A stretch of 64,000 nt of DNA from an uncultured virus (IMG/VR IMGVR_UViG_3300028571_000012). Its lineage: Duplodnaviria; Heunggongvirae; Uroviricota; Caudoviricetes. Below the pieces are notes generated by a model. The model made no database searches. It saw only the letters and a list, made by a program, of their open reading frames with translations, and was not told the DNA's origin. The first letter of the stretch is position 1, and every line of letters starts with the position of its first letter. This document shows, piece by piece, positions 23,242 through 59,280 of this stretch. The DNA is taken from the IMG/VR virus record IMGVR_UViG_3300028571_000012. One strand, 5' to 3'. Both the position numbers and the translations under genes were made by a program.

Positions 23242-23826
23242 TTAAAGGTTTCTTTCAATAATACTTGCGTTTTTTGGATTTTTGCGATGTTTGGCAAAAT
23301 GCTCAACTCCAAATCCATCAAGATACATAAGAGCCAAACGGATCCATTCGCCATGTGATACAATTACAACATCATTGGTGGAACTATTTTGTTGTCTGAT
23401 GCAACGCAGATGAGTAAAAAATGAGTATACCCGCAAGTGTGCATCTGCATAACTTTCACCTTTATCAGGACGATAGTAAAAATTAAAATGAGCTTCCTTT
23501 TTAAGGTGGCGATTGTCCACAATATCGCGTAAACTTCCCCAGTCACGTTCGCGCAACAATGGGTTTTCCTGCAATGATACAACATTACCATTGCTGGATA
23601 AAGCGTCAAAGACATATGCAGACGTTTGACGCGCCCGAACATAAGAACTTGTATAAATTTCAACAGCGTTGGCGCATACTAAACTTACCAACAAATCCGA
23701 ACATTCTTGTGCTTGAGCTCGGCCGTGTTCGGTAATGCAAATTTCACTATCGTGTTTTTCATAATACACGCTTTTGTCAACATTGCCTTCACTTTCGGCG
23801 TGACGAATAAGAAATATTTTACTCAT
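23242..23826 (-). CDS. histidine phosphatase (phosphoglycerate mutase family)
   Basis: LIRHAES.GN, RARQT, LRERDWG, GES, VSHG. Confidence 0.9.
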   Translation of the reverse strand: MSKIFLIRHAESEGNVDKSVYYEKHDSEICITEHGRAQAQECSDLLVSLVCANAVEIYTSSYVRARQTSAYVFDALSSNGNVVSLQENPLLRERDWGSLRDIVDNRHLKKEAHFNFYYRPDKGESYADAHLRVYSFFTHLRCIRQQNSSTNDVVIVSHGEWIRLALMYLDGFGVEHFAKHRKNPKNASIIERNL

Positions 23827-24710: not shown

Positions 24711-24783
24711 GGTGTGGTGTTTCCTTACGTGACTATTCTACCATACTTTGCCGCGTTTGTAAACAACTTTTTTCAACAAAATG
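24708..24783 (-). promoter_or_regulatory. early promoter/leader cassette (repeat copy)
   Basis: GTTTACA-17-TAGAAT then GTAAGGAAACACCAC..ATG. Confidence 0.8.
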
Positions 24784-26604: not shown

Positions 26605-27510
26605 TCACGCCTTTTTCTTTTTTGTCACCTTTGTCTTTTTAGGCTTATCATTAATACCGACCCAAGACGGTCTTTCAACAAGTTTCATGCCATAAGTATT
26701 AACACCGGTAGGAATTTCAATGTCGGTTCTTTTAATAAGCTTATTGTGTACCAATGTGCCATAGTCAACATGGTGATGCCAACGTCCGTAGCGCCAAACA
26801 ATTTTTGCATGTTCGGGATGCATATTGACAAGCAGCTGAGATTTATCCAATGTTCCTTTGCCGTTTTCCGCTTTTCCTTTACCGTATAGTTCTTCGGTAT
26901 TACCACCTTTGACTGTTTGCGTTGCCATTTTCATTTGCAGAAACGCATTAAACAATATTGTGCATTGCCCTGCTTTAAGCACTTGAAGTGAAAGATCAAC
27001 GTCCTCATTGTATTTGCCTCTCCATCGAAACGGAGCATCATTTTCAATAAGCATGCAGGAAAAGATTCTTCGGTTTACAGCAAATGCAGGATATTTAAAA
27101 CCATCAACACAAAAGAATGTGTATTGTAATCCTGCCAATGGCACATTTTCATACCGATCAACAAAATCTTCCATCACTTTAAACATGGTTCCACTTTCGG
27201 CTATAATTCTGCGACCTTTGTGCAATCTGTAAAACCGGTTAATGTTATCGTCCATTAACCAATGGCGCTTAAAGCCTAAGCTTTTGGCATGTTCCCAACA
27301 CCAGTTGCGAGCAGGTCCAGAACCTAGTCCATGGTTGCTAAACGGAAGAACCAAAATTTTCTTAGGATCAATTACAGCAGCATATGCTTCATATTCCTGC
27401 GGTTCAATGACAATGCTGTATGGCACTTTCATATGTTCAAGCGACCTACTTGTCACTCGACTATCAGCACGACCTTTGGAAATAATATAGACAGGATATT
27501 GTGGGTTCAT
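26605..27510 (-). CDS. GT-A glycosyltransferase, TET-associated/GREB1-like family
   Basis: YPVYIISKGR, VIEPQE, ARNWCWEH, W.MDDNI, YNEDVDLSL, GGNTEELY, RWHHHVDY. Confidence 0.8.
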   Translation of the reverse strand: MNPQYPVYIISKGRADSRVTSRSLEHMKVPYSIVIEPQEYEAYAAVIDPKKILVLPFSNHGLGSGPARNWCWEHAKSLGFKRHWLMDDNINRFYRLHKGRRIIAESGTMFKVMEDFVDRYENVPLAGLQYTFFCVDGFKYPAFAVNRRIFSCMLIENDAPFRWRGKYNEDVDLSLQVLKAGQCTILFNAFLQMKMATQTVKGGNTEELYGKGKAENGKGTLDKSQLLVNMHPEHAKIVWRYGRWHHHVDYGTLVHNKLIKRTDIEIPTGVNTYGMKLVERPSWVGINDKPKKTKVTKKKKA

Positions 27511-27514
27511 AACT

Positions 27515-27856
27515 TTACGGTAGTTGATCTTCTTGCTCCCCATCAATCCATCGCAGCAATGAATTTTTGCCGCGCACTTGTGCAGGATGCCAAATGCTCT
27601 TTGTTTTAAGAGTCATATTTGGTTGTCCAATAAGATTGCAAAACTCAAGATAATCTTCTTCATTGTTAAAATGAACGCGAATACTTTTATAGACATATTC
27701 ACCTTCTTCATATTCGGGCATTCCTGTCCATTCTTTTTTCCACAAGTCAATTTCATCAATTTGATCCGGTTCTTCCATAAAACCGCCAAGTGTTGATGGT
27801 GAAAGATCTACTTTTTTTCGATCCAATCCGTGTTCGTAGTCAACTGCGTTTCTCAT
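27515..27856 (-). CDS. small partner protein upstream of the glycosyltransferase
   Basis: W.GMPEY, V.F.NEED..F..LIGQ..T.KTKSIWHP. Confidence 0.6.
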   Translation of the reverse strand: MRNAVDYEHGLDRKKVDLSPSTLGGFMEEPDQIDEIDLWKKEWTGMPEYEEGEYVYKSIRVHFNNEEDYLEFCNLIGQPNMTLKTKSIWHPAQVRGKNSLLRWIDGEQEDQLP

Positions 27857-28696: not shown

Positions 28697-29318
28697 AATG
28701 TTGTGGTATTTCCTTACAAAGATATTCTACCATATTCTATGGCAGCTGTAAACATCTTTTTTCAATTATTTGTCGTTAGCAAAGGTCCAAAGTGTTTGAA
28801 TGTGCCATTTTTCCCAAACAATTGCATCATTTTCTTCATCAGTTCCTACATAAAGAACCGTTTTAAGAAGCCGAGCAGGACGCGTTCCAGTACCAGGACG
28901 CCGAAACGGCCCTTCAGTTTCACCGCAATAAAGCGTATGAGTTGCGCCTCTGTCGGCGGACCAAATGCATGGTGCACCTGTATAGACATCGTGAGTTTTT
29001 CCGTAGGTCTTTTCACGGACTCCAAAAATAGGAGTCTTACGAGAACGGAGTGAATCTTCCAAAGGGTAGGCGGTCATTACGGTACTATTCTACCATACTT
29101 TACCGCGGTTGTAAACAAAATTTTAAGGTTTTTTACGGTTGGAAATTACCATCCAATCCTACCATAGAAGGAATCATACACACATTTGTCATCCCTTCGG
29201 GAACCTTCGGTACTTTTAATGTTTGTTTTATAACAAAACAAGGTCAAGCCATTATGGCGCCTTTAAGACCTTAATATTATTATATCAAATTTCAAAAGTA
29301 TGTAAACAACAAAATGTA

Positions 29319-36864: not shown

Positions 36865-36938
36865 ATAATGTGGTGTTTCCTTACGGGACTATTCTACCAT
36901 AAAAATCGCCGTTTGTAAACAACTTTTTTCAACAAAAT
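36865..36938 (-). promoter_or_regulatory. early promoter/leader cassette (repeat copy)
   Basis: Near-identical to 26461-26535. Confidence 0.8.
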
Positions 36939-37091: not shown

Positions 37092-37634
37092 TCATAAAGA
37101 TGGCAGGTCATAGAGTTCCCGAATATCATTTTTGACGCGCTCTGTTTCAGCAGCAACCCACGAGCCGTTGGCTCCATAATAGTCTCTGACCTTGATATAT
37201 TGTGAAAGCATCCCAATAAAACTACATTTGCCTGCATTGTATCGTTCTGGAAGATTGTCAATCAGAACATTTTCAGGATCTGCAATGTCTTTATTTTCTG
37301 CATAAATGTAGTCCGATCCGTAGGCCAATTGAACTTTGTGTGCATAACGGTCTTGATCTTCTCGTGCAAAAATATGATCATGATCAAAATCAAAACCTCC
37401 TGCACTGTTTAGTTCATGCGCATACGATCTTGTTGCGGCAGTAAGAATATATACGTTTTCCTTTCCGACAAGTTCACGTGCAAACTCAATAAGATGCACT
37501 GCGTCTGGTCTAAAAATTGTAAAATAAGATTCTCTACTACTGTCCTTATGCGTGTAGCACTCTTGGTTTGGATGATTTCCAACTATGGTGTGCAGCAGTG
37601 TTTCATCAAGATCAAAAAATATTCGTTTTATCAT
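37092..37634 (-). CDS. HAD-family (NIF/FCP1-like) phosphatase
   Basis: FFDLDETLLH, RP, TAA...YA, LIDN. Confidence 0.8.
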   Translation of the reverse strand: MIKRIFFDLDETLLHTIVGNHPNQECYTHKDSSRESYFTIFRPDAVHLIEFARELVGKENVYILTAATRSYAHELNSAGGFDFDHDHIFAREDQDRYAHKVQLAYGSDYIYAENKDIADPENVLIDNLPERYNAGKCSFIGMLSQYIKVRDYYGANGSWVAAETERVKNDIRELYDLPSL

Positions 37635-39038: not shown

Positions 39039-39791
39039 CTAAAATGGTGCGAAGCGATTGAAGAGTCTTTCCGCCGAGTTTTTTTCGGCGGCATCGGAGC
39101 GGTGTTCTTTAATTTCTTCAATATTCAATATTGTCGCCAAACAGCCATCGGCATGTGCCATACCATTGCAATGAAAATGACCGTGATAAGATTTGCGTGG
39201 TTTACACAATGAGATTAATGCATTGTGATCCTGTCGTTCCTGCATGCACTCTTCCCACAACGATGCATCTTTTTGCGTCCAGCTTGCTATGGCGCTTTTA
39301 TCATATGGCCCAACCCAACTTGGTGCCGAATGTGTAATAAGAACATCACATGCGGTCACGCGGTTTGTGTCCAGCACAAAAGCTTCGTTGCTCCAATAGC
39401 TGACATTGTTTTCGCGCAATCGTCGATCAATGCTAACCGCACCGCCTACAAACAAAAACTTTTCGCCGTTAATAGTTTCACTGTAATAGTCCGGAAGTAA
39501 TTTAACGTGGCTAAGATTTATTCGTTTTTCAGCGTCATTAAAAAATATCGGATCATCATGATTGCCGCGTATTGTCATAAAGACAATATTGCGCTTGGCA
39601 AAAAAAGTGTTAAGCACAATACAATCATCAACATTAGCACCATATTTGCGCTTAAATCCAATACCAAAATCTCCTACGCAAATTAAAGTACAATCCTTAA
39701 TGTTGTTTTGAAACACCAAATTTTTTAATCTGGCAAATTGTCCATGAATGTCTCCAATTATATAGACCGGGTTTGTTTCCTCTGTTTTCAT
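39039..39791 (-). CDS. metallophosphoesterase
   Basis: GDIHG, GDFG, GNHD, GGAVSID, THSAP, HGHFH. Confidence 0.9.
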   Translation of the reverse strand: MKTEETNPVYIIGDIHGQFARLKNLVFQNNIKDCTLICVGDFGIGFKRKYGANVDDCIVLNTFFAKRNIVFMTIRGNHDDPIFFNDAEKRINLSHVKLLPDYYSETINGEKFLFVGGAVSIDRRLRENNVSYWSNEAFVLDTNRVTACDVLITHSAPSWVGPYDKSAIASWTQKDASLWEECMQERQDHNALISLCKPRKSYHGHFHCNGMAHADGCLATILNIEEIKEHRSDAAEKNSAERLFNRFAPF

Positions 39792-39988
39792 ATTTTTTCC
39801 AGTTTACTCATAAACAAGCACTTAAAGTAAGATTCTCCAACACAATCATTTAAAGTACAGTTATACTCCGTTGCAATTACACATACATTCTTTTTACACA
39901 ATGAAAAATATTCGATCCAAAAGGTAATTGGTTTTTTGTTTAGAATTTTCACGTATTGCAAATGTTTGATTTTTTGTATTTATTAAAA

Positions 39989-40313
39989 TGGTGGAGGTGT
40001 CGGGAGTTGAACCCGAGTCCACGATACAAACAATCTATAATCTACAACAATATCAAGCTTTTTTCGCCATGCTTGCCGGCTATGCACCTACGTTGTGCCC
40101 CAGAGTATAGTTTGGTGTACTCAACCTATTTTAGATTTGCCTAAAAAGCTATCCTCTGTCGTCGCCCACATCTTTTAGAGGAGTCAAAAAGTGGACGTAG
40201 CTTACGCAGCTAATGCAAGGTTATTTTCGCCTTTTGTTTTTCGCTTTTAAAGTCAAGCAGACTGTGTGTTGCAATAGGTGTGTTTCTTATCATGTCGAAA
40301 CCTTTTCACCCCC
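39989..40313 (-). ncRNA. ssrA: tmRNA, tag (A)GENNLALAA
   Basis: 5' GGGGGTGAAAAGGTTTCGAC, 3' GGGTTCAACTCCCGACACCTCCACCA with G3.U70; internal GGC GAA AAT AAC CTT GCA TTA GCT GCG TAA. Confidence 0.95.
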
Positions 40314-40496
40314 AGTTGAAATTGAAGCTTTGCCGTATGTTGATTCGATGCGCTCGATTTCCTTTGTAATAAAGGCCCTGAGCTCATCATATTTGTTTGG
40401 GTGAACGATATTGGTTTGCACTAAGGCGTAGATTAATCCGTGCATAGTGCCTTTGTAGGCACCAGCAAGAGATGCATAATTAATTTCTGTATTCAT
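40290..40496 (-). CDS. small hypothetical protein whose stop codon lies inside tmRNA
   Basis: ATG overlaps the stop of 40493-40693; last 7 codons and TGA are tmRNA nt 1-24. Confidence 0.55.
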   Translation of the reverse strand: MNTEINYASLAGAYKGTMHGLIYALVQTNIVHPNKYDELRAFITKEIERIESTYGKASISTGGEKVST

Positions 40497-41392
40497 AGAG
40501 TGTGTTGTACTAAAACGCTGAGCAAATGATTGTAGTCGCTGCTCGTGCAGTCATCCAATACCGCCTTGATTTCTTCAGTTGTGCGTCCTTGCTGGCGTGC
40601 CGCTGATTGGAATGCTCCCATAAGAGAATAGGCATTGCCGTTAAGACCAACAAGTTCGAGTTTAACAGGTTTACAGTGTAGTGATTCAGTCATAAAGTAT
40701 TGGTTACAAAGTTATTGTACCATACTTTATGACATTTGTAAACAAAAAAGTGAACAAGTTTTTACCGTCCTATGCGGTCGGCTCAATCAATTCCCATCGC
40801 TTGTCCATTTCAACCTCGTTTGTGGCGGCATTATAAAAAATTGATGGATGTCTCAATGCATAAGATCCTCGAAAATCAATATCTAGGCGCATTTGATTTG
40901 GCATTCCGCCAACTTGTTTCCAAACTGCATCAAACTCTTCTCCCGCGGACACCGGGCCGTAGTCTGCCACGGTCTTAATCTTCACCTTTTGACCTGACTT
41001 GAATTTTGTCTCTTCATTAAGAACACATGATGGATCCAAAACGGACATTGCGGCGTGACATAGTGCGTCTTGTTTGCGAAAAATATTGCTGTTGTTCATA
41101 CTTGTTTATTTATACACACTTCAATTTCAATCATTGTCTGGCACGCCATATTCAGTGCGAAGAGCCCAAACATATTCTCTGAATTGATCTATTAAATGAT
41201 CGCATGCCTGTCTGACATTTTCGTCAATGTTTTCATCTTGACGAAAATGACCACCGTTGTATTTTTGTGCGGTGCGCAGTTCATTCAACAGTTCGTCCAG
41301 CACTCTCAAGCTTCTTGTGCCGTTTACGGCAGCCGTATATTCATAATCTTCTTCGGGCAATTGAAATTCTAATGTTGCTTTCATAGTTTTAT

Positions 41393-42475
41393 TTATGGTT
41401 CAATTTTCACTTGCTCCAATTCATAAAAAATCGCAACGGTGTCGTCAGTTTGTTTTTCGGACAATATATTAAAGCAATGCGCCTTGCGCCAATCATCATA
41501 TTGTTGTGTTATTGCATACGCTTGTTCTCGGCGAGTGTCATACGCACGCAATGAGTTTGCCCAGTCAATCATAGCATCGCGTTTTTGAATATAGCAATTA
41601 TATGCCTGCACCACTGTTTCAATTTCTGGGCGAATTCGCTCGGCAATCTCATAGTCAGTTGTATTGACAACATAATCATAAAAATCATTTGCACAGATAA
41701 AGCGTGGAGAAGCCAAAAACAAATCCATCACTGATTTTACATTGGAAATTCCGGCGGCAACTTTATGCAAATGGCAATAATGAGACGCCTTAATTTTCTT
41801 CAATGTTTGACCGTCAGGAGAATAGAGCACAACACCTTCTTTTCCAATCCAATTTTGCACATCCGAAATACATTCTTGCGTTGTGTTGTAGTTGTAGCGC
41901 GACGGACGACCGACGCACCACAATTTGGCAACGTCATCTAGACTTTGTTGTGATACGTATTGTGCAGTCTTATTAAAGATCATGCCTACCAAAGTTAGTG
42001 TCGGGACATTATGTTCACGCAGCACAATAATGCGCGTTGGACTTGTCCATTCCAGCAATACCGAATAGCCATTGTCTAAAAAATTATTGTCAAACACTTC
42101 AGGATACCGAATGACTAAACCGTCAATTTCATGGCCGTTGGTCAGCATCCGAGCATCGACCGTTCCTCGAGTACTCACAACAAGTTTTCCGTTGTGACGT
42201 GAAACAATAAGCAACGAGCCGTCAAGCTTATGAACAGCTTTTACAGGCCATGAATCTTCCCACGGTTGAAAGTTTGGCTGCTCTCCAAAGTTGGTAAATT
42301 TTCCAAAGCCTTGAGACACTACGGTGTTATCGGATTTGCGGACAATGCAAGAACGAAAGCGCGCATTGTCGTCAGTCCACTTTACCGACATATCTTTTGG
42401 TGTGATTAACCAACAGTCGTCACCAGCAACAGTGACATCTTTAAAATTAAATTGTTCTGTATCGGGAAGTTTCAT
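41393..42475 (-). CDS. RNA ligase, T4 Rnl1-like
   Basis: KFTNFGE, KLDGSL, EW.SP..IV, EGVV, KIK...Y. Confidence 0.85.
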   Translation of the reverse strand: MKLPDTEQFNFKDVTVAGDDCWLITPKDMSVKWTDDNARFRSCIVRKSDNTVVSQGFGKFTNFGEQPNFQPWEDSWPVKAVHKLDGSLLIVSRHNGKLVVSTRGTVDARMLTNGHEIDGLVIRYPEVFDNNFLDNGYSVLLEWTSPTRIIVLREHNVPTLTLVGMIFNKTAQYVSQQSLDDVAKLWCVGRPSRYNYNTTQECISDVQNWIGKEGVVLYSPDGQTLKKIKASHYCHLHKVAAGISNVKSVMDLFLASPRFICANDFYDYVVNTTDYEIAERIRPEIETVVQAYNCYIQKRDAMIDWANSLRAYDTRREQAYAITQQYDDWRKAHCFNILSEKQTDDTVAIFYELEQVKIEP

Positions 42476-49206: not shown

Positions 49207-49293
49207 TGGTGCGTAAGACAGGACTCGAACCTGCAAGCCTCGTAGGCGCGGAATTTTAAGTTCCGAGTGTATCATCAATTCCACCACTTACGC
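49207..49293 (-). tRNA. tRNA-Leu(TAA), long variable arm
   Basis: CGGAA-CT TAA AA-TTCCG, GGTTCGAGTCC, CCA. Confidence 0.9.
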
Positions 49294-50011
49294 ATTAGAA
49301 AATTTATCGGTTGGTAAAACAATTTACCTGTAGGGACCGAAAGCTCCTGTAAGCGACACCACCACAGTGCCAAATTATTTCATAATATTTGCCAATGATT
49401 TTTCAAATTCTTCCACTTTGGGAAGTCGATTTGGCCAATAAATATAATCCTTTTCTTCGTTTTCTTTTAATCGTGATAACAAAGGAAGAATGGCGGCATA
49501 CAAAGCATCTGCTTTCTTTTTTTCACTTTCTGCGTTTTGTACAATTTCCAACTCACTTTCGTTTACAGCGGAAAATCCAAAGTCAAAATCGTAGTCAATA
49601 TTTTTCATGTATTAATGTCTTACCTATAATATGGGCTATTGCGACGGTAAGGCGGTCGCCAATATTCGTTAGGAATGTATGTATAAGTTGTATGGCAAGT
49701 TGAAAATCCCGTCGAGTGAATTCCAGGATAATAATACGGATCATAAGAAATGGTACAGCTTGAACTTATAAGCGCAAGTGCGCAAAACAATGTGATGTGT
49801 TTCATGCTTTTGTTTTTTTAAGTTGTGCTTTCATTTGCGCAAGCAACTTTTTCAATTCGGGAAGCAGATATTTTGGATCAACGGTATCAAACGGAAGAAC
49901 GTGAAACGGTCCGCGCGCATTTGGCTGACCGTAGGTTTCCATTCTTTTGGTGTGAAAAGCAATTGATTGCTCCATTGATTGAATATCGCTTTTTAAGATT
50001 TGCTTGTTGTT

Positions 50012-50078
50012 CATGTTGTGGTGTTTCCTTACAGGAACATTCTACCATATTTTGCGGAGGATGTAAACATCTTTTTTC
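50012..50078 (-). promoter_or_regulatory. early promoter/leader cassette (repeat copy)
   Basis: GTTTACA..TATGGTAGAAT..CCTGTAAGGAAACACCACAACATG. Confidence 0.8.
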
Positions 50079-50597
50079 ATTATTTTGAATCTTTTGTTGA
50101 TAGAATAATTCCGTACCAATACAAACACACGCACAAATACCATACGCCTATTGACGAACTGAATGTAAAATATACAACCGTGCCAGAAATTACCAAGGAT
50201 AGTAACAATGAAATCCATCCTGGCCATTCCATATCAACTTTGTCTTTTGAAAATGCCGCCAACGCACAACCTATTGAAGCAAGCGACAAATATATAACAG
50301 AAGCAATGAATAAAGTGATATTTCCTGTTTGTGCATAAACACACATGCCAACAAGGCATAGAAAATTGATTATTGTCACCATATGATGTATTGTTTTACA
50401 GTTTAAATATTGCGTTGTATGTTGATAGTTGCTGTGGGTTTTGAAGATCGCGAACTGAGGCATCGTCAAATCCCCCAACGGCCATTAGAAGGCCGAGGCC
50501 AAGAATCGTGAGAAAGATAAACAACAGTATGTTTGGTTGGTCTTGCATGTCAATATTCTACCATATTTTGCACGGTTTGTAAACAACTTTTTGCTGT

Positions 50598-51212
50598 TTA
50601 TTGCGGCACTGTACCGTAACCAAGCCGAGCTGCTTCCTTTGGTGATAAAGTGGCATACCATGATTTTTTTTGAACTAGTAATCCTGGCTTTCCTGTATAT
50701 TGGCAAGTGTTTTTACTGAGATATTCCGCGAACGCAATCATACCTTGAACGGTTTCATCTCCTCCATCAATATAGATTCTTAAACAACCAAACTTTTCCT
50801 TGAATTGGCCTATTTTTATTGCAGGCGGATTTGTATAAACATACAACTGTTGCTTATGGAGGAAATTTTGAATTTTTCCTGTAAGCCGTCTTACTTTTTT
50901 CCAGAAAATGTTTTTTGGATTGCAGTGCAAGCTTATTTTTCTGTTAAACTTTTGTATCAAATCATTGACAAAATTCATGAATTTTCTATTAGGATTTTTA
51001 ACGGCGCGTGATGTGTTTTGAATATAGTCAACAAATGATCCGAATAAATGATCAACAATAGTTTCCCATCCTTTGGGACAATCGTTGGCGCACCTTAAAG
51101 GCAAAAGTTTACCATCTGTACCAGTGTCAAAAAGACTTGGATATTTTTCAAATAATACTTGCTCAAAATCTTTCTTTGCAATTCTTTTCTTTGCTTGTTT
51201 TACTGTTTGCAT
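50598..51212 (-). CDS. conserved phage hypothetical protein (Q.KEKFG.LR.Y family)
   Basis: C.KGW..I, QFKEKFGCLRIY, AEYLS..TC..TG.PG; likely start MQTVKQ. Confidence 0.6.
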   Translation of the reverse strand: MQTVKQAKKRIAKKDFEQVLFEKYPSLFDTGTDGKLLPLRCANDCPKGWETIVDHLFGSFVDYIQNTSRAVKNPNRKFMNFVNDLIQKFNRKISLHCNPKNIFWKKVRRLTGKIQNFLHKQQLYVYTNPPAIKIGQFKEKFGCLRIYIDGGDETVQGMIAFAEYLSKNTCQYTGKPGLLVQKKSWYATLSPKEAARLGYGTVPQ

Positions 51213-51225
51213 AATGATATGTATA

Positions 51226-51543
51226 TTAGAGTTTTGGAAGTGATGTCCATAATGTCGGCTCGCGCAATTCACATACGCACCATCCAGCATCTGGGTGCCA
51301 TGAACAGATGCTCGCCAAATGACCAAGACCGTGTTGGTTTGGCGGACAATAGACAATAACTTCCGTTCCGTCCTTGGGAGCAGTTTCAATAGGTTTCCAA
51401 CAATTGTCATCTTGAATTTGTACCATCGTCCTGCCATAATCTGGACTCCAGCCTACATGACCTAATGTATGTTGTGCATTTTTATTCATAATTTTTTTAT
51501 TGTTATGTATCATGTCTTCTGGTGCGATGGTCGGCTTCGACAT
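51226..51543 (-). CDS. DUF551-like phage protein
   Basis: WKPIETAPKDGT, PTLW..LP. Confidence 0.6.
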   Translation of the reverse strand: MSKPTIAPEDMIHNNKKIMNKNAQHTLGHVGWSPDYGRTMVQIQDDNCWKPIETAPKDGTEVIVYCPPNQHGLGHLASICSWHPDAGWCVCELREPTLWTSLPKL

Positions 51544-51852
51544 AGCCGGGCAATTCGTTCAAAGAAAAAAGCCAGTCGGCATTTTTGAGCGGACAACGCT
51601 CTGGGACGATTCCTTGCTTCCACTCATTTACGACAAATGTTGAATAGTCAGTGTCATATTGCGCGTTCAGTTGCTGGGATAGTCCGCAGTATTTGTGCGC
51701 GTAGAACGGGCAGGTGCTGCAACTTGTAATGGAGAAGCTAATAGGACGGTCAGACTTAACAGGCGGGGCGGTATTAGTAAATGTTACAGTGTTTCGTTAC
51801 AGTTTATTGTACCATATTTTACGGGCAATGTAAACAAAAAGCGAAATATCAA

Positions 51853-52911
51853 CTATTTGTTCATATCATAGTTTTTGTTAATTACCTTGAATGAATTGGC
51901 AACATATTGCTTTGTCAGCACAATGTCATCAACAGAATGAGACAAACAATATGCACCATGATTGATTACAACACCTTCAAAAGCTTTGCCATCAATTTTC
52001 TTAAGACCAGTGGAATATTTGTCAATCAACGTTTGAGTCAGCACAACATTTTCTTCCAAGATTGGAACGTGAGGCAGTGACAGTGCATTTGCAACAATTG
52101 GAAAATAAAATGCATCACCTTTGCGTGCATATTTTCTTTCTTTGATGCGATACACACTGAAAATTGCCAATCCCGGATCGTCTTTTGAATGTGGATTTTC
52201 AGCAAATGCCTGAATGCCTTGACCATAAGATTCACCACGAATTGCCAATGAAACGCCGTGCTCTTTGCAATACGCGGTGAGCTTTTCACGAATGCCGTAT
52301 TTTTGGACATGAGCAGTGTATTTGTTATGAGCGTCATCTTTAAATTCAAGAGTTCGGCCGCATACGCCAAAGGTGTCAGATTCAATGTTGTAGTATGCAG
52401 TCCAAGATTGACCGTCAATTTTCAACGTGACATCTACAATTTCACCAAATGGTAGTGCACTTACCATATTTTCCCATCGCTCTTCATCAGTTTTAGGAAT
52501 GCCAAAAGGAAGCAAACCTTTAGCAGAAAGATCCTGCGGCAGTGGTGGTTCATAGTGAGTGATGCCTAAGGCATCGGACACATCACGACCTTCATCTTCA
52601 GGTTGAACACAATCGCCGTATTTCAGCATAATAGAATCCACTTGCTCAGGTTGTACAACAATACCTTCGCTCCATTCCCCGCGAAGCTTTACAGCTTTGA
52701 TGCGGCCTGGAGAATATTTGCGGTAGCCTTCGGCCCATTCAGCATCTTCAGGAAGAACTGAGTCAGGTTGAATGTAGATTACAAGATCACCTTCACGATG
52801 AAGGCCTCGTTCGGTTACACATTGATAGCCTAAAATTTTGACAAGATCAAGACGATCTGCATTTGGGTGAGAGACTACCGATTTAATTTTTTCAACTGAT
52901 GCGTTTTTCAT
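51853..52911 (-). CDS. RNA ligase, DRB0094/Rnl5 family
   Basis: N-terminal OB (HPNADRL, KLRG..SEG), PKTDEER, KIDGQS.T, GE..G.GIQ.N, EGVV, SFKVIN. Confidence 0.88.
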   Translation of the reverse strand: MKNASVEKIKSVVSHPNADRLDLVKILGYQCVTERGLHREGDLVIYIQPDSVLPEDAEWAEGYRKYSPGRIKAVKLRGEWSEGIVVQPEQVDSIMLKYGDCVQPEDEGRDVSDALGITHYEPPLPQDLSAKGLLPFGIPKTDEERWENMVSALPFGEIVDVTLKIDGQSWTAYYNIESDTFGVCGRTLEFKDDAHNKYTAHVQKYGIREKLTAYCKEHGVSLAIRGESYGQGIQAFAENPHSKDDPGLAIFSVYRIKERKYARKGDAFYFPIVANALSLPHVPILEENVVLTQTLIDKYSTGLKKIDGKAFEGVVINHGAYCLSHSVDDIVLTKQYVANSFKVINKNYDMNK

Positions 52912-53221
52912 AATGTAATTAGTTTATTCCAGCAATTTTCAATCTTGCGATTCCATTTTCATCCCAGTTTATCAGCTCGACGAGACCAATATTTCCATCT
53001 ACGGAAATTTCCGTGTATTAGGCGATTTTCATTTTTGATTGCTTGGGATAACTTTTCTCTCGTAGTCATTGACGCGATTCTATTAAAGTTCATTTTTTCG
53101 ACATGCATTTTTGGATGCACTCTTTTTCTTATTGGTAAAATATTTTGTAGGAGGCGCAATCTTATGGCGCACCAACGACCTAAGAGCAATTGGAGAATAA
53201 TCAAATGTGTTTTTAGTTGTC

Positions 53222-53296
53222 ATAATGTGGTGTTTCCTTACAGGACTATTCCACTATAAAATGCACCGTTTGTAAACAACTTTTTTCAACAAAATG
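53222..53296 (-). promoter_or_regulatory. early promoter/leader cassette (repeat copy)
   Basis: Near-identical to 26461-26535. Confidence 0.75.
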
Positions 53297-53371
53297 AAAA
53301 AGATTCAACCTATACAGGATAAGGGAAGCATCCACAATTACACATTGGAATTGACAATTGATTGAAAAGAA

Positions 53372-53459
53372 TGGCGGATGAAGTAGGTCCTGCCCCCAAA
53401 GCTCTTTCGAGCTCATACTGATTAGCAATCAGTTTCAGCGCTTCGCTGATTCATCATCC
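53372..53459 (-). tRNA. tRNA-Ser(GCT)
   Basis: ACTGA-TT GCT AA-TCAGT, long variable arm, CCA; atypical T loop. Confidence 0.8.
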
Positions 53460-53465
53460 ATAAAA

Positions 53466-53542
53466 TGGTACACCGAGTGCGACTCGAACGCACAATCGCC
53501 AGAGCTTAAATCTGGAGGCTTTACCAATTAGCCCACCGGTGC
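53466..53542 (-). tRNA. tRNA-Leu(TAA), short variable loop
   Basis: CCAGA-TT TAA GC-TCTGG, TTCGAGT, CCA. Confidence 0.85.
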
Positions 53543-53545
53543 ATT

Positions 53546-53637
53546 TGGCGGAACGTGCAGGATTCGAACCTGCGACACTCTTTGAAGGAGTGTTCTGCAC
53601 TTTCCAAGTGCAGTCTTCGTCCGTCCAGTCACGTTCC
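53546..53637 (-). tRNA. tRNA-Ser(GGA)
   Basis: TGCAC-TT GGA AA-GTGCA, long variable arm, CCA. Confidence 0.88.
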
Positions 53638-53645
53638 AAGGAAAG

Positions 53646-53717
53646 TCCGCGGGCTTGGATTTGCACCAAGTTGGTCAGATTCACAGTCTGAGGCCTTACT
53701 ACATAGGCTACCCTCGG
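53646..53717 (-). tRNA. tRNA-His(GTG), atypical
   Basis: TCAGA-CT GTG AA-TCTGA; no encoded CCA, lacks G-1/C73. Confidence 0.65.
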
Positions 53718-53794
53718 GAAAATTTGCAAGCATTTCACTTGCGCGCACACTCATTATCCTGGTGAGAAATCCTAAGATTGGCAGTGTGTGTACC

Positions 53795-54523
53795 TTATCC
53801 TAATTGAATTTTTTTGCGTTTGCGTGTAGGACCGCCACTCTCTCTTTTAAAAGAAGCATTGTCCATACCATGAGACAGCACTTTATATTTGTTTTGCACT
53901 TCAACAGTTTGCAGTTCAGGTGCTTGCAGTGAATTAAAAATTTGTGTATAGACAACCACTGGATCCACCGGAAATTTCATGTCTTTCAAACATGGATTTA
54001 AAACCCAGCAGTTGTGATCATCAGAATGTTCGACACCGCGATAATTCAATCCAAACAGCGGAACATCAAGATGTGCATGCAATGCCATCAACTTTTCAGG
54101 TTTGCAATTTGCTTCAAAATTGTTACACACTGCGGTTGAATAGTTGGAAAGGTACTTGAATCTTTTTCCAAGTCTATCATTCTTATAAGCATAAGCTTCA
54201 GCGAATGATACAACAGCGTGTGTTTCATGAATGAGAAAATATGGATGGCCACCAACACAATAAAATGAAATTGGGGCGTTTGAAGTCCAACCATTTTGCA
54301 AACGATAAGTTTTTGAAGGATTAAGTTCACGTATCACAATGGCGCAAAGCTTAAGAAATTGTGATGGATCATTAACATCGTATCCGCCGATTGTGTATCT
54401 TCCAGGAAGCGTTTTATCAACCGTTGGAATCTTTGATGTTTTGCGGTTGTAGACAATTTTAGAATCTTGACCATACTTGGTGCAAAAATCATAATAGTCT
54501 GAAAAGTTTGAATTGATGTACAT
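53795..54523 (-). CDS. hypothetical protein inside RNA array
   Basis: 242-aa ORF; I.S.F.DYYD N-terminus, K...HG.D..SF C-terminus. Confidence 0.65.
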   Translation of the reverse strand: MYINSNFSDYYDFCTKYGQDSKIVYNRKTSKIPTVDKTLPGRYTIGGYDVNDPSQFLKLCAIVIRELNPSKTYRLQNGWTSNAPISFYCVGGHPYFLIHETHAVVSFAEAYAYKNDRLGKRFKYLSNYSTAVCNNFEANCKPEKLMALHAHLDVPLFGLNYRGVEHSDDHNCWVLNPCLKDMKFPVDPVVVYTQIFNSLQAPELQTVEVQNKYKVLSHGMDNASFKRESGGPTRKRKKIQLG

Positions 54524-54542
54524 AATATAAAGTTTGGTAAAA

Positions 54543-54617
54543 TGGTAGGGGCGACAGGAATTGAACCTGCTTACCTTCGATTATGAGTCGAACGCTAGAC
54601 CAATTAGCTACACCCCT
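54543..54617 (-). tRNA. tRNA with CAT anticodon (Ile2 or Met)
   Basis: TTCGA-CT CAT AA-TCGAA, CCA. Confidence 0.85.
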
Positions 54618-54729
54618 TTTTATTTTGCCAATATTGTTTTTTTATTTCGGCAAGTTTTTTCCTTACATGGTTATTCTACTATAAAACAAGGCAGTTGTAA
54701 ACAACTTTTTTCACTTTTTTTCGATAAAA

Positions 54730-54807
54730 TGGCACACCACGTGAGGATCGAACTCACTAAGACGAAAGATTTGGAGTCCTTCCGACTTGCCCACAGTCTG
54801 ATGGTGC
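54730..54807 (-). tRNA. tRNA-Trp(CCA)
   Basis: AAGGA-CT CCA AA-TCTTT, G73, CCA. Confidence 0.85.
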
Positions 54808-54815
54808 GTTGAAAA

Positions 54816-54890
54816 TGGTCCACACTGACGTGTCCGAATCGTCTTGTTTCGCTCTTCAGGCGAACGCTTTACCATATAAGCTAAGTGTGG
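54816..54890 (-). tRNA. tRNA-Phe(GAA)
   Basis: TTCGC-CT GAA GA-GCGAA, CCA. Confidence 0.85.
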
Positions 54891-54898
54891 ATATAAAA

Positions 54899-54987
54899 TG
54901 GAGGGAGCTAGAGGAATCGAACCCCTACCCGCTACAAACGCATAGCCCAGAGTTCAAATCTGGTTTGTCACCTTGACGCTAGCTCCC
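54899..54987 (-). tRNA. tRNA-Ser(TGA)
   Basis: CCAGA-TT TGA AC-TCTGG, long variable arm, CCA. Confidence 0.85.
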
Positions 54988-54994
54988 TAAAAAT

Positions 54995-55043
54995 TGGAAC
55001 AGGCGGCCGGGATCCCAACCCTTGGTTATCCTTGCGGACCTGC
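54995..55043 (-). ncRNA. 49-nt tRNA-like mini RNA ending in CCA
   Basis: GCAGGT/GCCTGT terminal stem plus T-CCA; no anticodon arm. Confidence 0.45.
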
Positions 55044-55054
55044 ATTGTATAAAA

Positions 55055-55086
55055 TGGTACCTTCGGTGTGATTCGAACACACCGTT
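55055..55086 (-). pseudogene. 3' half of split tRNA (T arm, acceptor strand, CCA)
   Basis: GTGTG-TTCGAAT-CACAC-CGAAGGT-A-CCA; pairs 7/7 with GCCTTCG at 55949-55943. Confidence 0.8.
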
Positions 55087-55091
55087 TTAAT

Positions 55092-55806
55092 TTAAATTAT
55101 GGAATAAAGATCTTCGACATCTTCCAATTTTATCTGTCCCGAAATAAATTTTGTGAAATTATTAATTCCATTTTCATTTCTGATTAGAAATATTTTTAAA
55201 TTTGGATTGTCTTTTTTTACTAATCTATATTTGTTTTTATCACGATCTGATAACCAACCTTTAACTTCGATATATGTATGATCGGAAACTTTAAAATCCG
55301 GTGTATAGCACCTATGCTCATCAAACTTAAGTCTTTCCCGAGATATGGTATACCCAAGTTCGATCAATTTTTTCACCTACTTGGGCTTCCCAAGTTCCTT
55401 GAACTTTAAGACCATTGGAAAGAGTATACCATTTTATATGTGGTGATCGTTCTAAATATTCAATTCGGGCCTTAGATAATTTTCGTTTTGATTCCACAGA
55501 ATGACCGTTTAATGATGCCCCAAATTTTTTTCCAACCAATGTTGGTCTTTCTAAACGAGGATCATCATGTTTCGTTATTCCTGCAGACCATCCCATCATT
55601 TTTCTAGTTTCAGATGAATAATTTTTTCTCATGTTTTTCCTGTTTTCTAAATATCCAGGATCTTTATTCTTTAAAAGAAGCGCATCGCTATTTCTTTTCC
55701 TAATAACAGGACAACTGTTGGATGATTTAGAACATATATTTTTACCAACTTTAATAGTCTTAAAAAGTGCTAAGTTGCCACAACCATGTTCACATAAAAT
55801 GTCCAT
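55092..55806 (-). CDS. PD-(D/E)xK homing-type endonuclease with NUMOD3-like region, split by a +1 frameshift
   Basis: HS.ESKRKLS, QGTWE in one frame; YTPDF..YIEVKGW in the next; join at A6 run 55368-55373; late promoter 55811-55818. Confidence 0.75.
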
Positions 55807-55834
55807 ATTTTATTTATAATAGAATCTAAATTAA

Positions 55835-55916
55835 TACCCCGACCGAGACTTGAACTCGGACGTTCTTCCGAACAACAGTTTCTAAGACTATCATGTCTGC
55901 ATTCCATCATCGGGGC
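55835..55916 (-). tRNA. tRNA-Leu(TAG), nested in split tRNA, no encoded CCA
   Basis: GCCCCGA/TCGGGGT acceptor, ATAGT-CT TAG AA-ACTGT, long variable arm. Confidence 0.85.
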
Positions 55917-55919
55917 TTT

Positions 55920-55949
55920 ACGGCGCCTCTACCGTTGGGCTACGAAGGC
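55920..55949 (-). pseudogene. 5' half of split tRNA (Leu-type D arm)
   Basis: GCCTTCG-TA-GCCCAACGGTAGAGGCG then truncation. Confidence 0.8.
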
Positions 55950-55951
55950 AA

Positions 55952-56026
55952 TGGCGCACACAGAAGGACTCGAACCTCCAACATTCTGTTTCGAAGACAG
56001 ACGCTCTTCCATTGAGCTATGCGTGC
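55952..56026 (-). tRNA. tRNA-Arg(TCG)
   Basis: TCTGT-CT TCG AA-ACAGA, CCA. Confidence 0.92.
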
Positions 56027-56036
56027 ATGGAAAATG

Positions 56037-56498
56037 TTATACTTTTGCGCCAACCGCAAGTGCGGCAGCATAAGCTTTAAATTCCGCAGAAGTTTTACCT
56101 TTAACAAAGACACCTTCTGAATCATAACTACGATATTCTGACCATGGCAATGTTCCATCGCTTGTGTTAATAAGACCCGATGGAAGTTTAATGAAAACCT
56201 TTGTATCGCCTCGCATGTATGCAACGCATCCGCTACCGCAATAAATTACATCGTCATTAAGTTGACCATTAATGGATGTGGCATTTTTATCGGTTGCTTT
56301 AAGACCACCGTCAATCATTGGCTTACCAATTCGATCTTCGTTTGAGGCCAAAAAGTTATCATAATTATGTGCTCCTTTTTTAGTCCAAGGAGTATTGCCT
56401 GCGGCAAAAGGAAATTCACCATTTGCTTCAACAATTTGTCCTCCCAAAATTGCTTTTGCGGCAATATACGTTTCATCGTTTGTTTTAATAATATTCAT
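56037..56498 (-). CDS. late protein, probable internal head protein
   Basis: TATAAATA 56508-56515; 22 nt around the start identical to that of 46830-48353; leader ending IVE. Confidence 0.6.
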   Translation of the reverse strand: MNIIKTNDETYIAAKAILGGQIVEANGEFPFAAGNTPWTKKGAHNYDNFLASNEDRIGKPMIDGGLKATDKNATSINGQLNDDVIYCGSGCVAYMRGDTKVFIKLPSGLINTSDGTLPWSEYRSYDSEGVFVKGKTSAEFKAYAAALAVGAKV

Positions 56499-56533
56499 AT
56501 GTATTGTTATTTATACATTTTTTGTTTTGAAAA

Positions 56534-56609
56534 TGGCGCACATGGCGAGTACTGATCTCGCGTCCGAAACATTGACAATGTTCCCATCTGCCATTGAAAG
56601 TACATGTGC
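56534..56609 (-). tRNA. tRNA-Asp(GTC)
   Basis: GAACA-TT GTC AA-TGTTT, G73, CCA. Confidence 0.85.
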
Positions 56610-56613
56610 GTAT

Positions 56614-56640
56614 TGGTGCCTCTGGGAGAATTTGAATCTA
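56614..56640 (-). pseudogene. 3' remnant of a tRNA
   Basis: AGA-TTCAAAT-TCTCC-CAGAGGC-A-CCA without an upstream body. Confidence 0.6.
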
Positions 56641-56656
56641 GATCTTATCAAATAAA

Positions 56657-56734
56657 TGGTGCAGGTGAGAGGATTCGAACCTCCATCGCTCCATTACGGT
56701 GCTACTGCTTAGAAGACAGTTCCGATACACCTGC
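56657..56734 (-). tRNA. D-arm-less tRNA-Arg(TCT)-like RNA
   Basis: GCAGGTG/CACCTGC, 7-nt linker instead of D arm, ACTGT-CT TCT AA-GCAGT, long variable region, canonical T arm, CCA. Confidence 0.7.
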
Positions 56735-57604
56735 TGAAAATTTTCTTTTAAAACATTTAAGTTCATAAAACTCAGGTAAATATCTTTTCATCCACTTTGA
56801 AACATTCTGTGGTTTTTTACCAAGCAGCTTTGAAACTTTATTCACCCACCCAAACTTCGAAAAATCTATACCCGAATTTAAAACCAAGTCTTTATATGGT
56901 TCCCATCTAATGGCTTCTCTTAATAGTATTTTTTCTCCGGGCGCCAATTTTTTTTCTTTAGCTGCTTTGAGTCTTAATATTTCAAAATATTTTTCATAAG
57001 ATGGTTGTTTTCCGATTTTTATTACAGAATCAATGAGTTCATGGTTGTACACAGAAGTATAATGTAATTCAATTAACGTCCATCCGGCTGAGGTGATTAA
57101 ATCATGTCGTTTTTGATAATATTCGGCGAGTGTCCCATCCTTATTATAATGTTGATTTCCATTTACCTCTATTCCAAATTTTAAATCGGGAAAACATATA
57201 TCTATTGAAAAATTTCTATCTTCCAGTGGGCTCCATTCTGAAACAAATGATATCCCCTTTGAGTTAAGATAGGTTTTAAGATATTCACAAGGAACGGATA
57301 TAAATTTAGAATTATTCTTCCAAGGGTGTTTATCCGGATTCTTCTTAAGAAAATCTTTTCTCTTTATTGAGAGATTATTTTTTCTTTCTGCGGAAAAAAC
57401 AATTGGAAATTTCTTACATTCGACACATCGTTTTCCTCTACTATTAAACAGTATTCCACAACGTAGACATGTTTTTTCTTTCCTCTGTTTTCTGTTTGGA
57501 TTTGATTTGCACCACCGTATGTGGTCTCCAATAGATCCTCTAGTTTCATTCGAAATTTCAATACTACAAAATGAACATTTCCTAATTCGAATCTCATTTT
57601 GCAT
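56702..57604 (-). CDS. homing-type endonuclease: Zn-ribbon N-terminus plus Vsr/DUF559-like nuclease
   Basis: CxxC pairs, S.P.E, FSIDI.FP...GIEVNGNQHY, R...I...GW; late promoter 57610-57617. Confidence 0.8.
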   Translation of the reverse strand: MQNEIRIRKCSFCSIEISNETRGSIGDHIRWCKSNPNRKQRKEKTCLRCGILFNSRGKRCVECKKFPIVFSAERKNNLSIKRKDFLKKNPDKHPWKNNSKFISVPCEYLKTYLNSKGISFVSEWSPLEDRNFSIDICFPDLKFGIEVNGNQHYNKDGTLAEYYQKRHDLITSAGWTLIELHYTSVYNHELIDSVIKIGKQPSYEKYFEILRLKAAKEKKLAPGEKILLREAIRWEPYKDLVLNSGIDFSKFGWVNKVSKLLGKKPQNVSKWMKRYLPEFYELKCFKRKFSAGVSELSSKQ

Positions 57605-57632
57605 AAAGTTATTTATACAAGATTCGAATTAG
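57582..57632 (-). promoter_or_regulatory. 13-bp hairpin enclosing late promoter and start codon
   Basis: CTAATTCGAATCT (57582-57594) / AGATTCGAATTAG (57620-57632). Confidence 0.75.
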
Positions 57633-57653
57633 AACGAACGAGGCATAAGAAAA

Positions 57654-57728
57654 TGGTACGCAATGACAGATTTGAACTGCCGACAATCTGAATGTAAATC
57701 AGGGGCTCTACCGCTGAGCTAATTGCGC
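57654..57728 (-). tRNA. tRNA-Val(TAC)
   Basis: CTGA-TT TAC AT-TCAG, CCA. Confidence 0.92.
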
Positions 57729-57736
57729 ATTAAAAA

Positions 57737-57810
57737 TGGTGGGGGATTTGTGAGTTGAACACAAACATCTCGAGTCAAAGTCGAGAGCACTACCATTATG
57801 CTAATCCCCT
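57737..57810 (-). tRNA. tRNA-Gln(TTG)
   Basis: CTCGA-CT TTG AC-TCGAG, CCA. Confidence 0.9.
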
Positions 57811-57819
57811 ATTGAAAAA

Positions 57820-57894
57820 TGGTGAGTCGCCCAGTAATCGAAACTGGATCTCTACGTTCGTAGCGTAGCGTGCTGTCCATTCTACTAACAACTC
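57820..57894 (-). tRNA. tRNA-Arg(ACG)
   Basis: CTACG-CT ACG AA-CGTAG, CCA. Confidence 0.9.
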
Positions 57895-57900
57895 TTAAAT

Positions 57901-57977
57901 TGGTCCTCGATGTTGGGCACGATCCAACGACCTCACGCTTATCAAGCGTGCGCTCTACCAGGCTGAGCTAATCGAGG
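57901..57977 (-). tRNA. tRNA-Ile(GAT)
   Basis: CACGC-TT GAT AA-GCGTG, CCA. Confidence 0.92.
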
Positions 57978-58059
57978 TTTGAAAATTGACCAATTGCCTA
58001 ATCCGCTGCACACTACTTTATCAGGTATAGCCGCTTGCAATCAGGCAATTGGAAATGAA

Positions 58060-58213
58060 TTTGCGGCTCAGGTCGCTATATCGTGCAATGTGTTCCCAAC
58101 CGAAATTGATAACGTCTCGAAAGACTCGATTTCTACCATATGCCGACTGGCGTCTTCCTATGGCTACCTTGCACAAACGTCTTAGTTGACGAATACCCCT
58201 CAATGACCGCAAA
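58060..58213 (-). ncRNA. unidentified multi-stem RNA
   Basis: Nested stems GCGG/CCGC, GTGCAA/TTGCAC, CCATA/TATGG, GTCT-TTCG-AGAC. Confidence 0.55.
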
Positions 58214-58215
58214 AG

Positions 58216-58292
58216 TGGTCGGGACGGCCAGATTCGAACTGACGACATCATGCTCCCAAAGCATGCGCTCTACCAGGCTGAGCTACGTCCCG
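58216..58292 (-). tRNA. tRNA-Pro(TGG)
   Basis: CATGC-TT TGG GA-GCATG, CCA. Confidence 0.95.
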
Positions 58293-58510
58293 TAAAAAAA
58301 TTTATGATTCTCGCCAACCCGAAGATTGTTGCACGCCATCACAGGAATTCCTCCGACGCACACGAGATAACGGATTCAAGGACCCGGGACACCCTTGTTG
58401 ATTGACATTTCAACTTATGGCTTACGATTTTTACCTGACAGCAGGCTTCTTTCATGTGGAGTACAACATGCCGTGCTGTACCATTAGTTCGTACTTATGA
58501 CGCAGAAAAT

Positions 58511-58599
58511 TGGCGGCCCGTTAACATCAAATGGATTTGGAATCCACATGTTCCGCTCATCACTTCACGACGGGCCAAGCGTGAAGCTCAATTGAGCGC
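58511..58599 (-). ncRNA. kink-turn/pseudoknot RNA ending in CCA
   Basis: CGCTCA-ATT-GA/GA-TGAGCG k-turn pattern; loop GGCCCGT pairs with 3' ACGGGCC-G-CCA. Confidence 0.6.
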
Positions 58600-58607
58600 A
58601 AGAAAAA

Positions 58608-58679
58608 CTTTCATGGCAGGCCATTCTCCTGCACTTTCCTTTTTACAACAAAGGGTCCTATTATTTAGACGACATGAAA
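58608..58679 (-). tRNA. degenerate tRNA-Thr(TGT)-like cloverleaf
   Basis: TTTCATG/CATGAAA, CCTTT-GT TGT AA-AAAGG, T loop AGAATGG, no CCA. Confidence 0.5.
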
Positions 58680-58682
58680 AAT

Positions 58683-58773: not shown

Positions 58774-58782
58774 TTTGAAAAT

Positions 58783-58857: not shown

Positions 58858-58867
58858 ATATGAAAAT

Positions 58868-58943: not shown

Positions 58944-58952
58944 ATTAGAAAT

Positions 58953-59273: not shown

Positions 59274-59280
59274 ATAAAAG

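Follow-up and report, generated by a model that had tools for sequence, protein, structure and literature searches.

A window of 64,000 nucleotides (nt) from an uncultured virus of the Caudoviricetes (IMG/VR record IMGVR_UViG_3300028571_000012) was analyzed, in which a gene for a one-piece transfer-messenger RNA (tmRNA) is entered by the small open reading frame (ORF) upstream of it. The tmRNA gene is located at 39989..40313 on the minus strand, is 325 nt long and has an encoded CCA end. It was identified by ARAGORN and by the Rfam model RF00023 with the same coordinates, and the Rfam match reached 97.5 bits (gathering score 47, E 1.9e-38) over model positions 1-374 of 374. The Rfam alignment and the minimum free energy (MFE) fold both contain a 7-bp acceptor stem, in which the 5′ GGGGGUG pairs with CACCUCC, followed by ACCA. 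G3 is placed opposite a U in this stem, and a G3-U pair is the identity element for alanine. The T-arm GGGUUCAACUCCC is present in the alignment as well as in the MFE fold, in which tmRNA nt 1-7 are paired with the 3′ end. The tag reading frame called by ARAGORN comprises nt 83-112 (40202..40231, minus strand, window coordinates computed from 40313) and encodes GENNLALAA followed by a stop codon, so that the hydrophobic ..LAA tag end is present. The resume codon was GGC (Gly) and not the usual GCN (Ala), giving (A)GENNLALAA, an assignment made by ARAGORN only.

The ORF upstream, ORF68 (40290..40496, minus strand), encodes 68 amino acids (aa) and overlaps the tmRNA gene by 24 nt (40290..40313, minus strand), as found from the sequence and the ORF list. 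The minus strand reads ..TCA ACT at the end of the upstream part, directly followed by GGG GGT GAA AAG GTT TCG ACA TGA. Codons 62-68 of ORF68 together with the stop codon correspond to tmRNA nt 1-24, and the UGA stop (40290-40292) to nt 22-24. The 5′ end of the tmRNA was predicted by the two programs on the basis of the acceptor stem, and its first nucleotide (40313) is the first base of an ORF68 codon. The original prediction of an ORF that stops inside a tmRNA, with the RNA 5′ end on a codon boundary, was confirmed in its coordinates by the sequence, the ORF list, ARAGORN and Rfam. The match to a codon boundary was considered as a meaningful feature and rejected, as it is expected by chance in 1 of 3 cases and disappears in a relative that has an additional G (six G's). 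RNase P is the established maker of tmRNA 5′ ends (PMC3985003), and from this role a cut is predicted between 40314 and 40313, with a U at position −1.

To describe ORF68, its relatives were collected with a word-indexed search and a profile search. The former resulted in nine proteins including ORF68, the eight non-identical relatives being 61-69 aa in length and 64-88% identical. The latter, in a database of 1.84 billion representatives, resulted in 17 clusters (50% identity) at E ≤ 0.001, which are 54-107 aa in length and match profile positions ~3-55. The conserved core INYA.LAGAY.G....L.Y.L....IVD.DKYDEL (residues 3-55) is present in ORF68. In the joint alignment of the family, Y7 and G12 are invariant, and N6, L21, Y23 and L25 almost invariant. 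The tails at the C-terminus vary in sequence as well as in length, the latter between 0 and 13 residues. For ORF68, AlphaFold (21-row alignment) predicted a helical hairpin with helices at 7-27 and 33-60 and a mean predicted local distance difference test (pLDDT) score of 81.4. Residues 60-68 were below 50, and the part encoded by the tmRNA lies in this stretch, outside the conserved core. Since the core ends at about residue 55, the tails are variable and the pLDDT is low at 60-68, the tail of ORF68 is, according to alignment and model, dispensable.

By its conservation, ORF68 is a genuine conserved protein gene. Variants of the region were obtained from the runs X3, X4 and X9, which are other lake and sediment runs, X9 being a metatranscriptome. 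The start codon ATG seen in the window is missing from run X3 (40494 C>T), where a 6-nt insertion behind 40489 restores ATG-AAC-ACA, whereby the N-terminus MNTEIN is kept in the reconstruction. Because ORF68 is conserved as a protein and its start was rebuilt after the indel, it is taken to be translated; an untranslated ORF, which would have spoken against the original prediction, does not agree with these data. A distant member of the family on the metagenome contig L005 (79 aa, 48% identical) has its own stop codon, is followed by ordinary ORFs, and no tmRNA was found in this 6.2-kb locus. The family is tied to a tmRNA only within a narrow clade of at least 81% identity, and its members are mostly 54-65 aa long with their own ends.

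No match to ORF68 was obtained in PHROGs or in the ESM Atlas. The Pfam scan (E ≤ 0.1) resulted in UPF0182 as the sole match (12.5 bits) and not in ArfA, and Foldseek against the PDB gave no match at E ≤ 0.001, the best being a generic helical hairpin at E 2.1. According to the Pfam, PHROG and structure searches, ORF68 does not belong to the ArfA family, and by inspection it is not basic, unlike ArfA-type tails. The cultured-phage collection contained no match to the 3.5-kb region (megablast), to ORF68 (tblastn) or to the tmRNA (blastn). The closest record was G001, which matches the 1301-nt query 39800-41100 with 100% identity and holds no independent data.

The stop inside the tmRNA is kept in five of the eight non-identical relatives, as found from the protein ends and from the DNA behind them in contigs of X3, X4 and X9. 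The tails end in ..GGEKVSTQ (P0002), ..GGEMVSTR (P0003), ..GGEKVSTR (P0004) and ..STGG (P0005 and P0006). The exchange 40292 A>G (X3, X4 and X9) changes the UGA stop to CGA and extends the ORF by one codon to a UAA; as we read the Rfam alignment, the exchange likewise replaces U-G by C-G at one pair in a tmRNA helix. The exchange 40303 T>A in X3 replaces Lys by Met. A contig of X4 (94 nt, depth 2, possibly an error) has an extra C behind 40308, resulting in six G's and a stop on the UGA of tmRNA nt 6-8, which agrees with the ..STGG ends of P0005 and P0006. As far as these sequences indicate, the stop position and the tail length are passive followers of changes in the tmRNA sequence. The other three relatives (P0007-P0009), known from their protein ends alone, have the tail ..GGKIDPQ, which is not derived from this tmRNA 5′ end.

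Upstream of ORF68 lies ORF66 (40493..40693, minus strand; 66 aa), the stop codon of which overlaps the ORF68 start (ATGA). It matches phrog_1933 (E 1.3e-19; function unknown), and nothing above the cut-off was found in Pfam. A putative early promoter with the motif TTTACA-N14-TGG-TACAAT is located at 40714..40742 (minus strand), 21 nt upstream of the ORF66 start. The site consists of TTTACA and TACAAT at a distance of 17 nt with a TG element, and has 10 of 12 matches in the sigma-70 scan. The pattern TTTACA-N14-TGNTANAAT (one mismatch allowed) was found 17 times in the window, always on the minus strand, vs. 0.47 expected matches, and this number was reached in 0 of 100 shuffles. In G001 the same 40-nt promoter block was found at two other places, conserved around TTGTTTACAA...TATGGTAGAAT. 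Judging from these repeats, the motif is evidently the early-promoter consensus of the phage. The consensus can be written as TTTACA-N14-TGGTAGAAT and often follows a T-run; the 17 sites are distributed over 23207-62643 (minus strand), e.g., at 24735-24763, 29087-29115 and 61203-61427. Three tandem copies about 98 nt apart (61203, 61301 and 61399) are located upstream of a tRNA cluster.

In the pattern scan, neither ORF66 nor ORF68 nor the stretch directly before the tmRNA contained a copy of the early-promoter motif, and transcription would reach the next copy at 36891-36919. The sigma-70 scan likewise resulted in no minus-strand site between 40714 and 40313; T4-type middle and late promoters were not systematically covered by the two scans. 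No terminator-like site was found between the promoter and the tmRNA, within the tmRNA or shortly behind it, and the 216 nt that follow the tmRNA are less structured than shuffled sequences (z +1.42). From the placement of the promoter and the absence of terminators, we infer as the best reading that ORF66, ORF68 and the tmRNA are likely co-transcribed. Any message with the ORF68 stop includes tmRNA nt 1-24 and, as there is no terminator, carries the whole tmRNA; it should therefore be an RNase P substrate, with a second promoter or without. The original prediction had held that a separate tmRNA promoter would leave the ORF mRNA intact, which fails logically for the same reason. One contig of X4 (depth 2.6) diverges just upstream of ORF68 (loose end 40507), where the minus strand carries a TGGTATAAT-type −10 element, and is a hint at promoter, ORF68 and tmRNA as the unit that is kept. 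ORF66 has no similarity to the ORF upstream of the distant homologue in L005, so that no conserved two-gene module is present.

For a comparison with other phage tmRNAs, viral contigs were scanned for the tmRNA 5′ pattern. This resulted in 78 loci, for which ARAGORN called 33 one-piece tmRNAs (window row included), 22 permuted tmRNAs and none in 24; the permuted and tmRNA-less loci were excluded from the context counts. An ORF of at least 60 aa reads into the tmRNA in 9 of 25 distinct one-piece contexts. Three of these are doubtful (L065, L069 and L070), and the remaining six represent three ORF families.

Family 2 was counted in 80 of 173 matching loci. Its members, from marine viral contigs, are about 110-135 aa in length, have a Lys-rich N-terminus and are unannotated. 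No match was found in PHROGs, and a Fis-type helix-turn-helix match in one member was far below the cut-off. In 20 of the 80 loci the ORF ends inside the tmRNA, with an overlap of 33 or 39 nt that is always in frame 0 (L084-L091, L102, L110, L112-L113, L117-L118 and L123-L128). In L122 the ORF ends 35 nt short of the tmRNA, in 24 loci the tmRNA follows at a distance of 186-998 nt, and 35 are without a tmRNA in the locus. In the protein tree, which leaves out two rows shorter than 90 aa, the overlap is found on the basal branches of one 33-row clade, in which one escape from the overlap and one tmRNA-less subclade are derived. A single origin of the overlap in family 2 is compatible with this tree.

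Family 3 (MWKVYKY..., 69-86 aa; L130-L162, e.g., L130:2408-2617, L139:2445-2699 and L156:1832-2074) precedes the tmRNA in those loci of family 2 in which the tmRNA is far away, and always abuts it. Its members end inside the tmRNA by 8, 13, 27 or 40 nt, using all three frames. No match to family 3 was found in PHROGs, and neither family 2 nor family 3 had a match in the cultured-phage collection (tblastn).

The explanation to which we give somewhat better than even chances is that the overlap results incidentally from the dense packing of genes in an early operon of this freshwater T4-like phage. The early promoter at 40742-40714 would drive one transcript of ORF66, ORF68 and the tmRNA that probably extends into the phosphoesterase gene behind them. 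ORF68, which has no stop codon of its own, would terminate at the first in-frame stop within the tmRNA, at nt 22-24. Ribosomes close behind the polymerase could complete the 68 aa at a time when the 3′ half of the tmRNA, needed for the acceptor stem, is not yet made. Once the tmRNA has folded, host RNase P would cut at nt 1, leaving an upstream message that ends in ...UCAACU without a stop codon. Later ribosomes would stall on this message and be rescued by trans-translation, whereby the 61-aa product would be tagged and the RNA fragment would decay. The overlap would thus shorten the productive life of the ORF68 message and be tolerated because the tail does not matter, instead of being built as a sensor. 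The packing in the window is tight elsewhere, since the real ORFs 56037-56498 and 60022-60225 stop 10 nt before a tRNA-Arg and 8 nt before a tRNA-Ile, respectively.

For the claim that tmRNA maturation makes the ORF68 message non-stop, the structural premises (same strand, a real gene and no motif in between) were found as predicted, and the consequence is plausible. If host RNase P matures the tmRNA from the shared transcript, a part of the ORF68 messages would become non-stop and their product should be tagged; we consider it somewhat more likely than not that this takes place at a meaningful frequency. The further claim of a built-in sensor or feedback loop found no support: similarity to rescue factors is missing in the searches made, the tail drifts with the tmRNA, the family occurs elsewhere without a tmRNA, and unrelated ORFs overlap tmRNAs too.

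Several observations weigh against packing as the explanation. The overlap is kept in every close relative with a readable junction, and family 2 has retained it along deep branches of its protein tree, so that selection for the overlap is conceivable. An ORF ends inside the RNA gene at 33 of 48 distinct tmRNA junctions vs. 2 of 18 tRNA junctions. These counts are not independent: the 33 junctions represent about four ORF families, and 80 of the loci were collected by way of family 2. The sole contig from an RNA library (X9, 249 nt, depth 2.2) covers 40054-40302 of a relative and shows no RNA ends. A tmRNA-specific excess of overlaps was considered as a separate result, but no significance is claimed for it, given the approximately four families and a sampling that went partly through family 2. 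At the other 15 of the 48 tmRNA junctions the stops are located 4-93 nt upstream, and the stops of ORFs before tRNAs cluster at −12 to +15.

The same overlap could be a selected device, in which RNase P makes the ORF68 message non-stop and the product of 61 aa plus tag is destroyed as long as trans-translation works, accumulating, untagged or truncated, only when rescue is exhausted, as in an ArfA-like sensor or feedback loop. All structural prerequisites for this are present: the tag ends in LAA, the truncated 61-aa product retains the conserved core 3-55, and truncated ArfA retains activity. The stop has stayed inside the tmRNA in five of eight relatives even after a frame change. Such overlaps are also seen at the tmRNAs of other phages, and those of family 2 have lasted through long branches. 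We nevertheless regard such a device as unlikely. No link of ORF68 to translation or rescue is detectable in Pfam, PHROG, ESM Atlas or Foldseek searches, its family occurs without a tmRNA (L005) and mostly as proteins of 54-65 aa with their own ends, and the ribosomes that translate the transcript first, while it is still being made, would not be affected. The tmRNA-overlapping ORFs elsewhere are mutually unrelated, which fits packing better than a specific sensor. A broader form of selection, in which aquatic T4-like phages routinely express the tmRNA by extending a small translated ORF at its 3′ end and the junction is a selected homeostat, appears more doubtful still. It is in agreement with the finding that stops inside tmRNAs occur in all three frames and in no fewer than three unrelated ORF families, in one of which this state persists over deep branches. 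Each maturation would then make one stop-less message and translation of the ORF would gate tmRNA folding, so that tmRNA supply, the availability of free ribosomes and the level of the upstream protein would be linked.

The coupling could also act in the reverse direction, with ribosomes on tmRNA nt 1-24 keeping the acceptor stem open and the tmRNA being matured mainly when the operon is poorly translated and few ribosomes are free, as a control of tmRNA supply by ribosome availability. In favor of this, the ORF68 stop falls within the 5′ strand of acceptor stem and helix 2, a ribosome terminating at even the shortest overlaps (8 nt) would cover nt 1-7, and no other arrangement was as frequent as the overlap among the phage tmRNA junctions examined. 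This proposal is pure inference, and we give it a low probability: an ORF with its stop 1-12 nt ahead of a tRNA would protect the acceptor strand to nearly the same degree, which leaves a stop inside the RNA unexplained, and the 15 of 48 tmRNA junctions with stops 4-93 nt upstream manage without it. An equally low probability is assigned to the absence of any coupling, with the ORF68 message and the tmRNA made separately (from a promoter inside ORF68, or by ends inside the tmRNA) or ORF68 barely translated, so that non-stop messages would be rare. By inspection, ORF66 and ORF68 have no visible Shine-Dalgarno sequence, and tmRNA nt 1 is preceded at 8-13 nt by a weak −10-like TTCAAT. The scans made do not include promoters of the middle and late types. 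Against this, neither scan identified a promoter-like site inside ORF68, and the conservation of ORF68 as a protein with a rebuilt start speaks for its translation. Messages with the ORF68 stop include tmRNA nt 1-24 with no terminator inside or after, and would be RNase P substrates regardless.

Comparable arrangements are described in bacteria. Hudson, Lau and Williams (2014) described smpB running into ssrA in Carsonella ruddii as a feedback situation, crediting Mao et al. (2009), and found this case "nowhere else but in Carsonella" (PMC4131195). As for ORF68, a coding sequence (CDS) upstream on the same strand runs into the tmRNA gene. There, the CDS encodes SmpB, the partner of the tmRNA, which makes a feedback inherent, and the bacterium is a reduced endosymbiont, whereas here a phage encodes a 68-aa protein without a link to rescue. 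The survey in the same article lists 250 same-orientation overlaps with the CDS upstream among 115,660 t(m)RNA genes of 2031 genome projects (Table 4), and all same-orientation overlaps amount to about 1 in 15,000 mRNAs. Phages with ssrA are listed, and overlaps in them are not discussed in the part of the article available. ORF68 belongs to this class, being an upstream CDS on the strand of the RNA gene with its stop codon within that gene. The survey is bacterial and requires a functional CDS with a Pfam or CDD match; ORF68 has no Pfam family, but is conserved (17 clusters) and has a start codon rebuilt in a relative.

In Alphaproteobacteria a tRNA-Sec gene is nested in selB, and a nonstop selB mRNA was proposed as a solely bioinformatic model (PMC8124441). 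This bacterial case differs from ORF68, since the RNA gene is nested in a large CDS whose product binds that tRNA. For phages, tmRNA genes were reported in 402 of 18,146 genomes (Buchholz et al., 2022; PMC9004378). In the marine T4-like myophages described there, ssrA is located downstream of an early promoter, as in this phage. Their tmRNAs differ in being two-piece and associated with a glutamine riboswitch, and the available part of the article does not mention an ORF running into a tmRNA. A full-text literature search, the coverage of which excludes subscription journals, resulted in no paper on ORFs reading into phage tmRNAs.

Another small ORF that loses its stop codon to an endonuclease is arfA. 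Garza-Sanchez et al. are said to have described in 2011 that arfA is regulated through an RNase III site, by which the stop is lost and the product is tagged by tmRNA. The loss of the stop is reported for arfA and predicted for ORF68. The two cases differ in that RNase III acts at a hairpin inside the arfA ORF, the product of which is a rescue factor, whereas RNase P would act at the tmRNA and ORF68 has no match to ArfA.

In itself the case is an annotation-level curiosity, the concept having been published before for smpB-ssrA of Carsonella (PMC4131195). If RNase P strips the stop codon, a defined and abundant non-stop message would be formed beside the phage's own rescue RNA, and would be a natural substrate for studies of the function of phage tmRNAs. 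The recurrence of unrelated small ORFs with ends inside phage tmRNA genes may be of more weight than the single gene. Its contrast to the overlaps with an upstream CDS at 250 of 115,660 t(m)RNA genes in bacteria suggests that phage tmRNAs are generally matured out of mRNAs. For annotation, it follows that ORFs should not be trimmed or discarded for overlapping an RNA gene.

The window has a G+C content of 38%. Pfam matches, from a scan of 50 of the 94 crude ORFs, include gp32, gp59, gp5, gp6, gp25 and baseplate proteins, which indicate a T4-like phage, as well as two RNA ligases and several phosphatases; SmpB was not found among the 50 scanned ORFs. The window was assigned to an uncultured T4-like myovirus of freshwater. 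ARAGORN identified 24 tRNA genes in addition to the one tmRNA, all on the minus strand. The tRNA genes at 49207-60516 (minus strand) include two tRNA-Leu(UAA), three with a CAT anticodon and one tRNA-Ile(UAU), with small ORFs interspersed, the real ones of which stop 8-10 nt before the next tRNA.

Genes of the RNA-repair type were found around the tmRNA and the tRNA cluster at 39039-39791, 41393-42475, 51853-52911, 23242-23826 and 37092-37634 (all minus strand). This set comprises a metallophosphoesterase directly after the tmRNA, Rnl1-like and Rnl2-like RNA ligases, a histidine phosphatase and a NIF-type phosphatase. A TET-associated glycosyltransferase is encoded at 26605-27546 (minus strand; Pfam TAGT, E 4.5e-49), and this match suggests phage DNA with glycosylated hydroxymethyl bases. 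A protein with a TnsA-like endonuclease N-terminal domain and an HNH endonuclease (15012-15509, plus strand, and 61717-62352, minus strand, the second adjoining the tRNA cluster) are likely free-standing selfish nucleases. Finally, an 811-aa protein with RCC1 repeats (713-3148, minus strand) adjoins the baseplate genes and may be a tail fibre or receptor-binding component.

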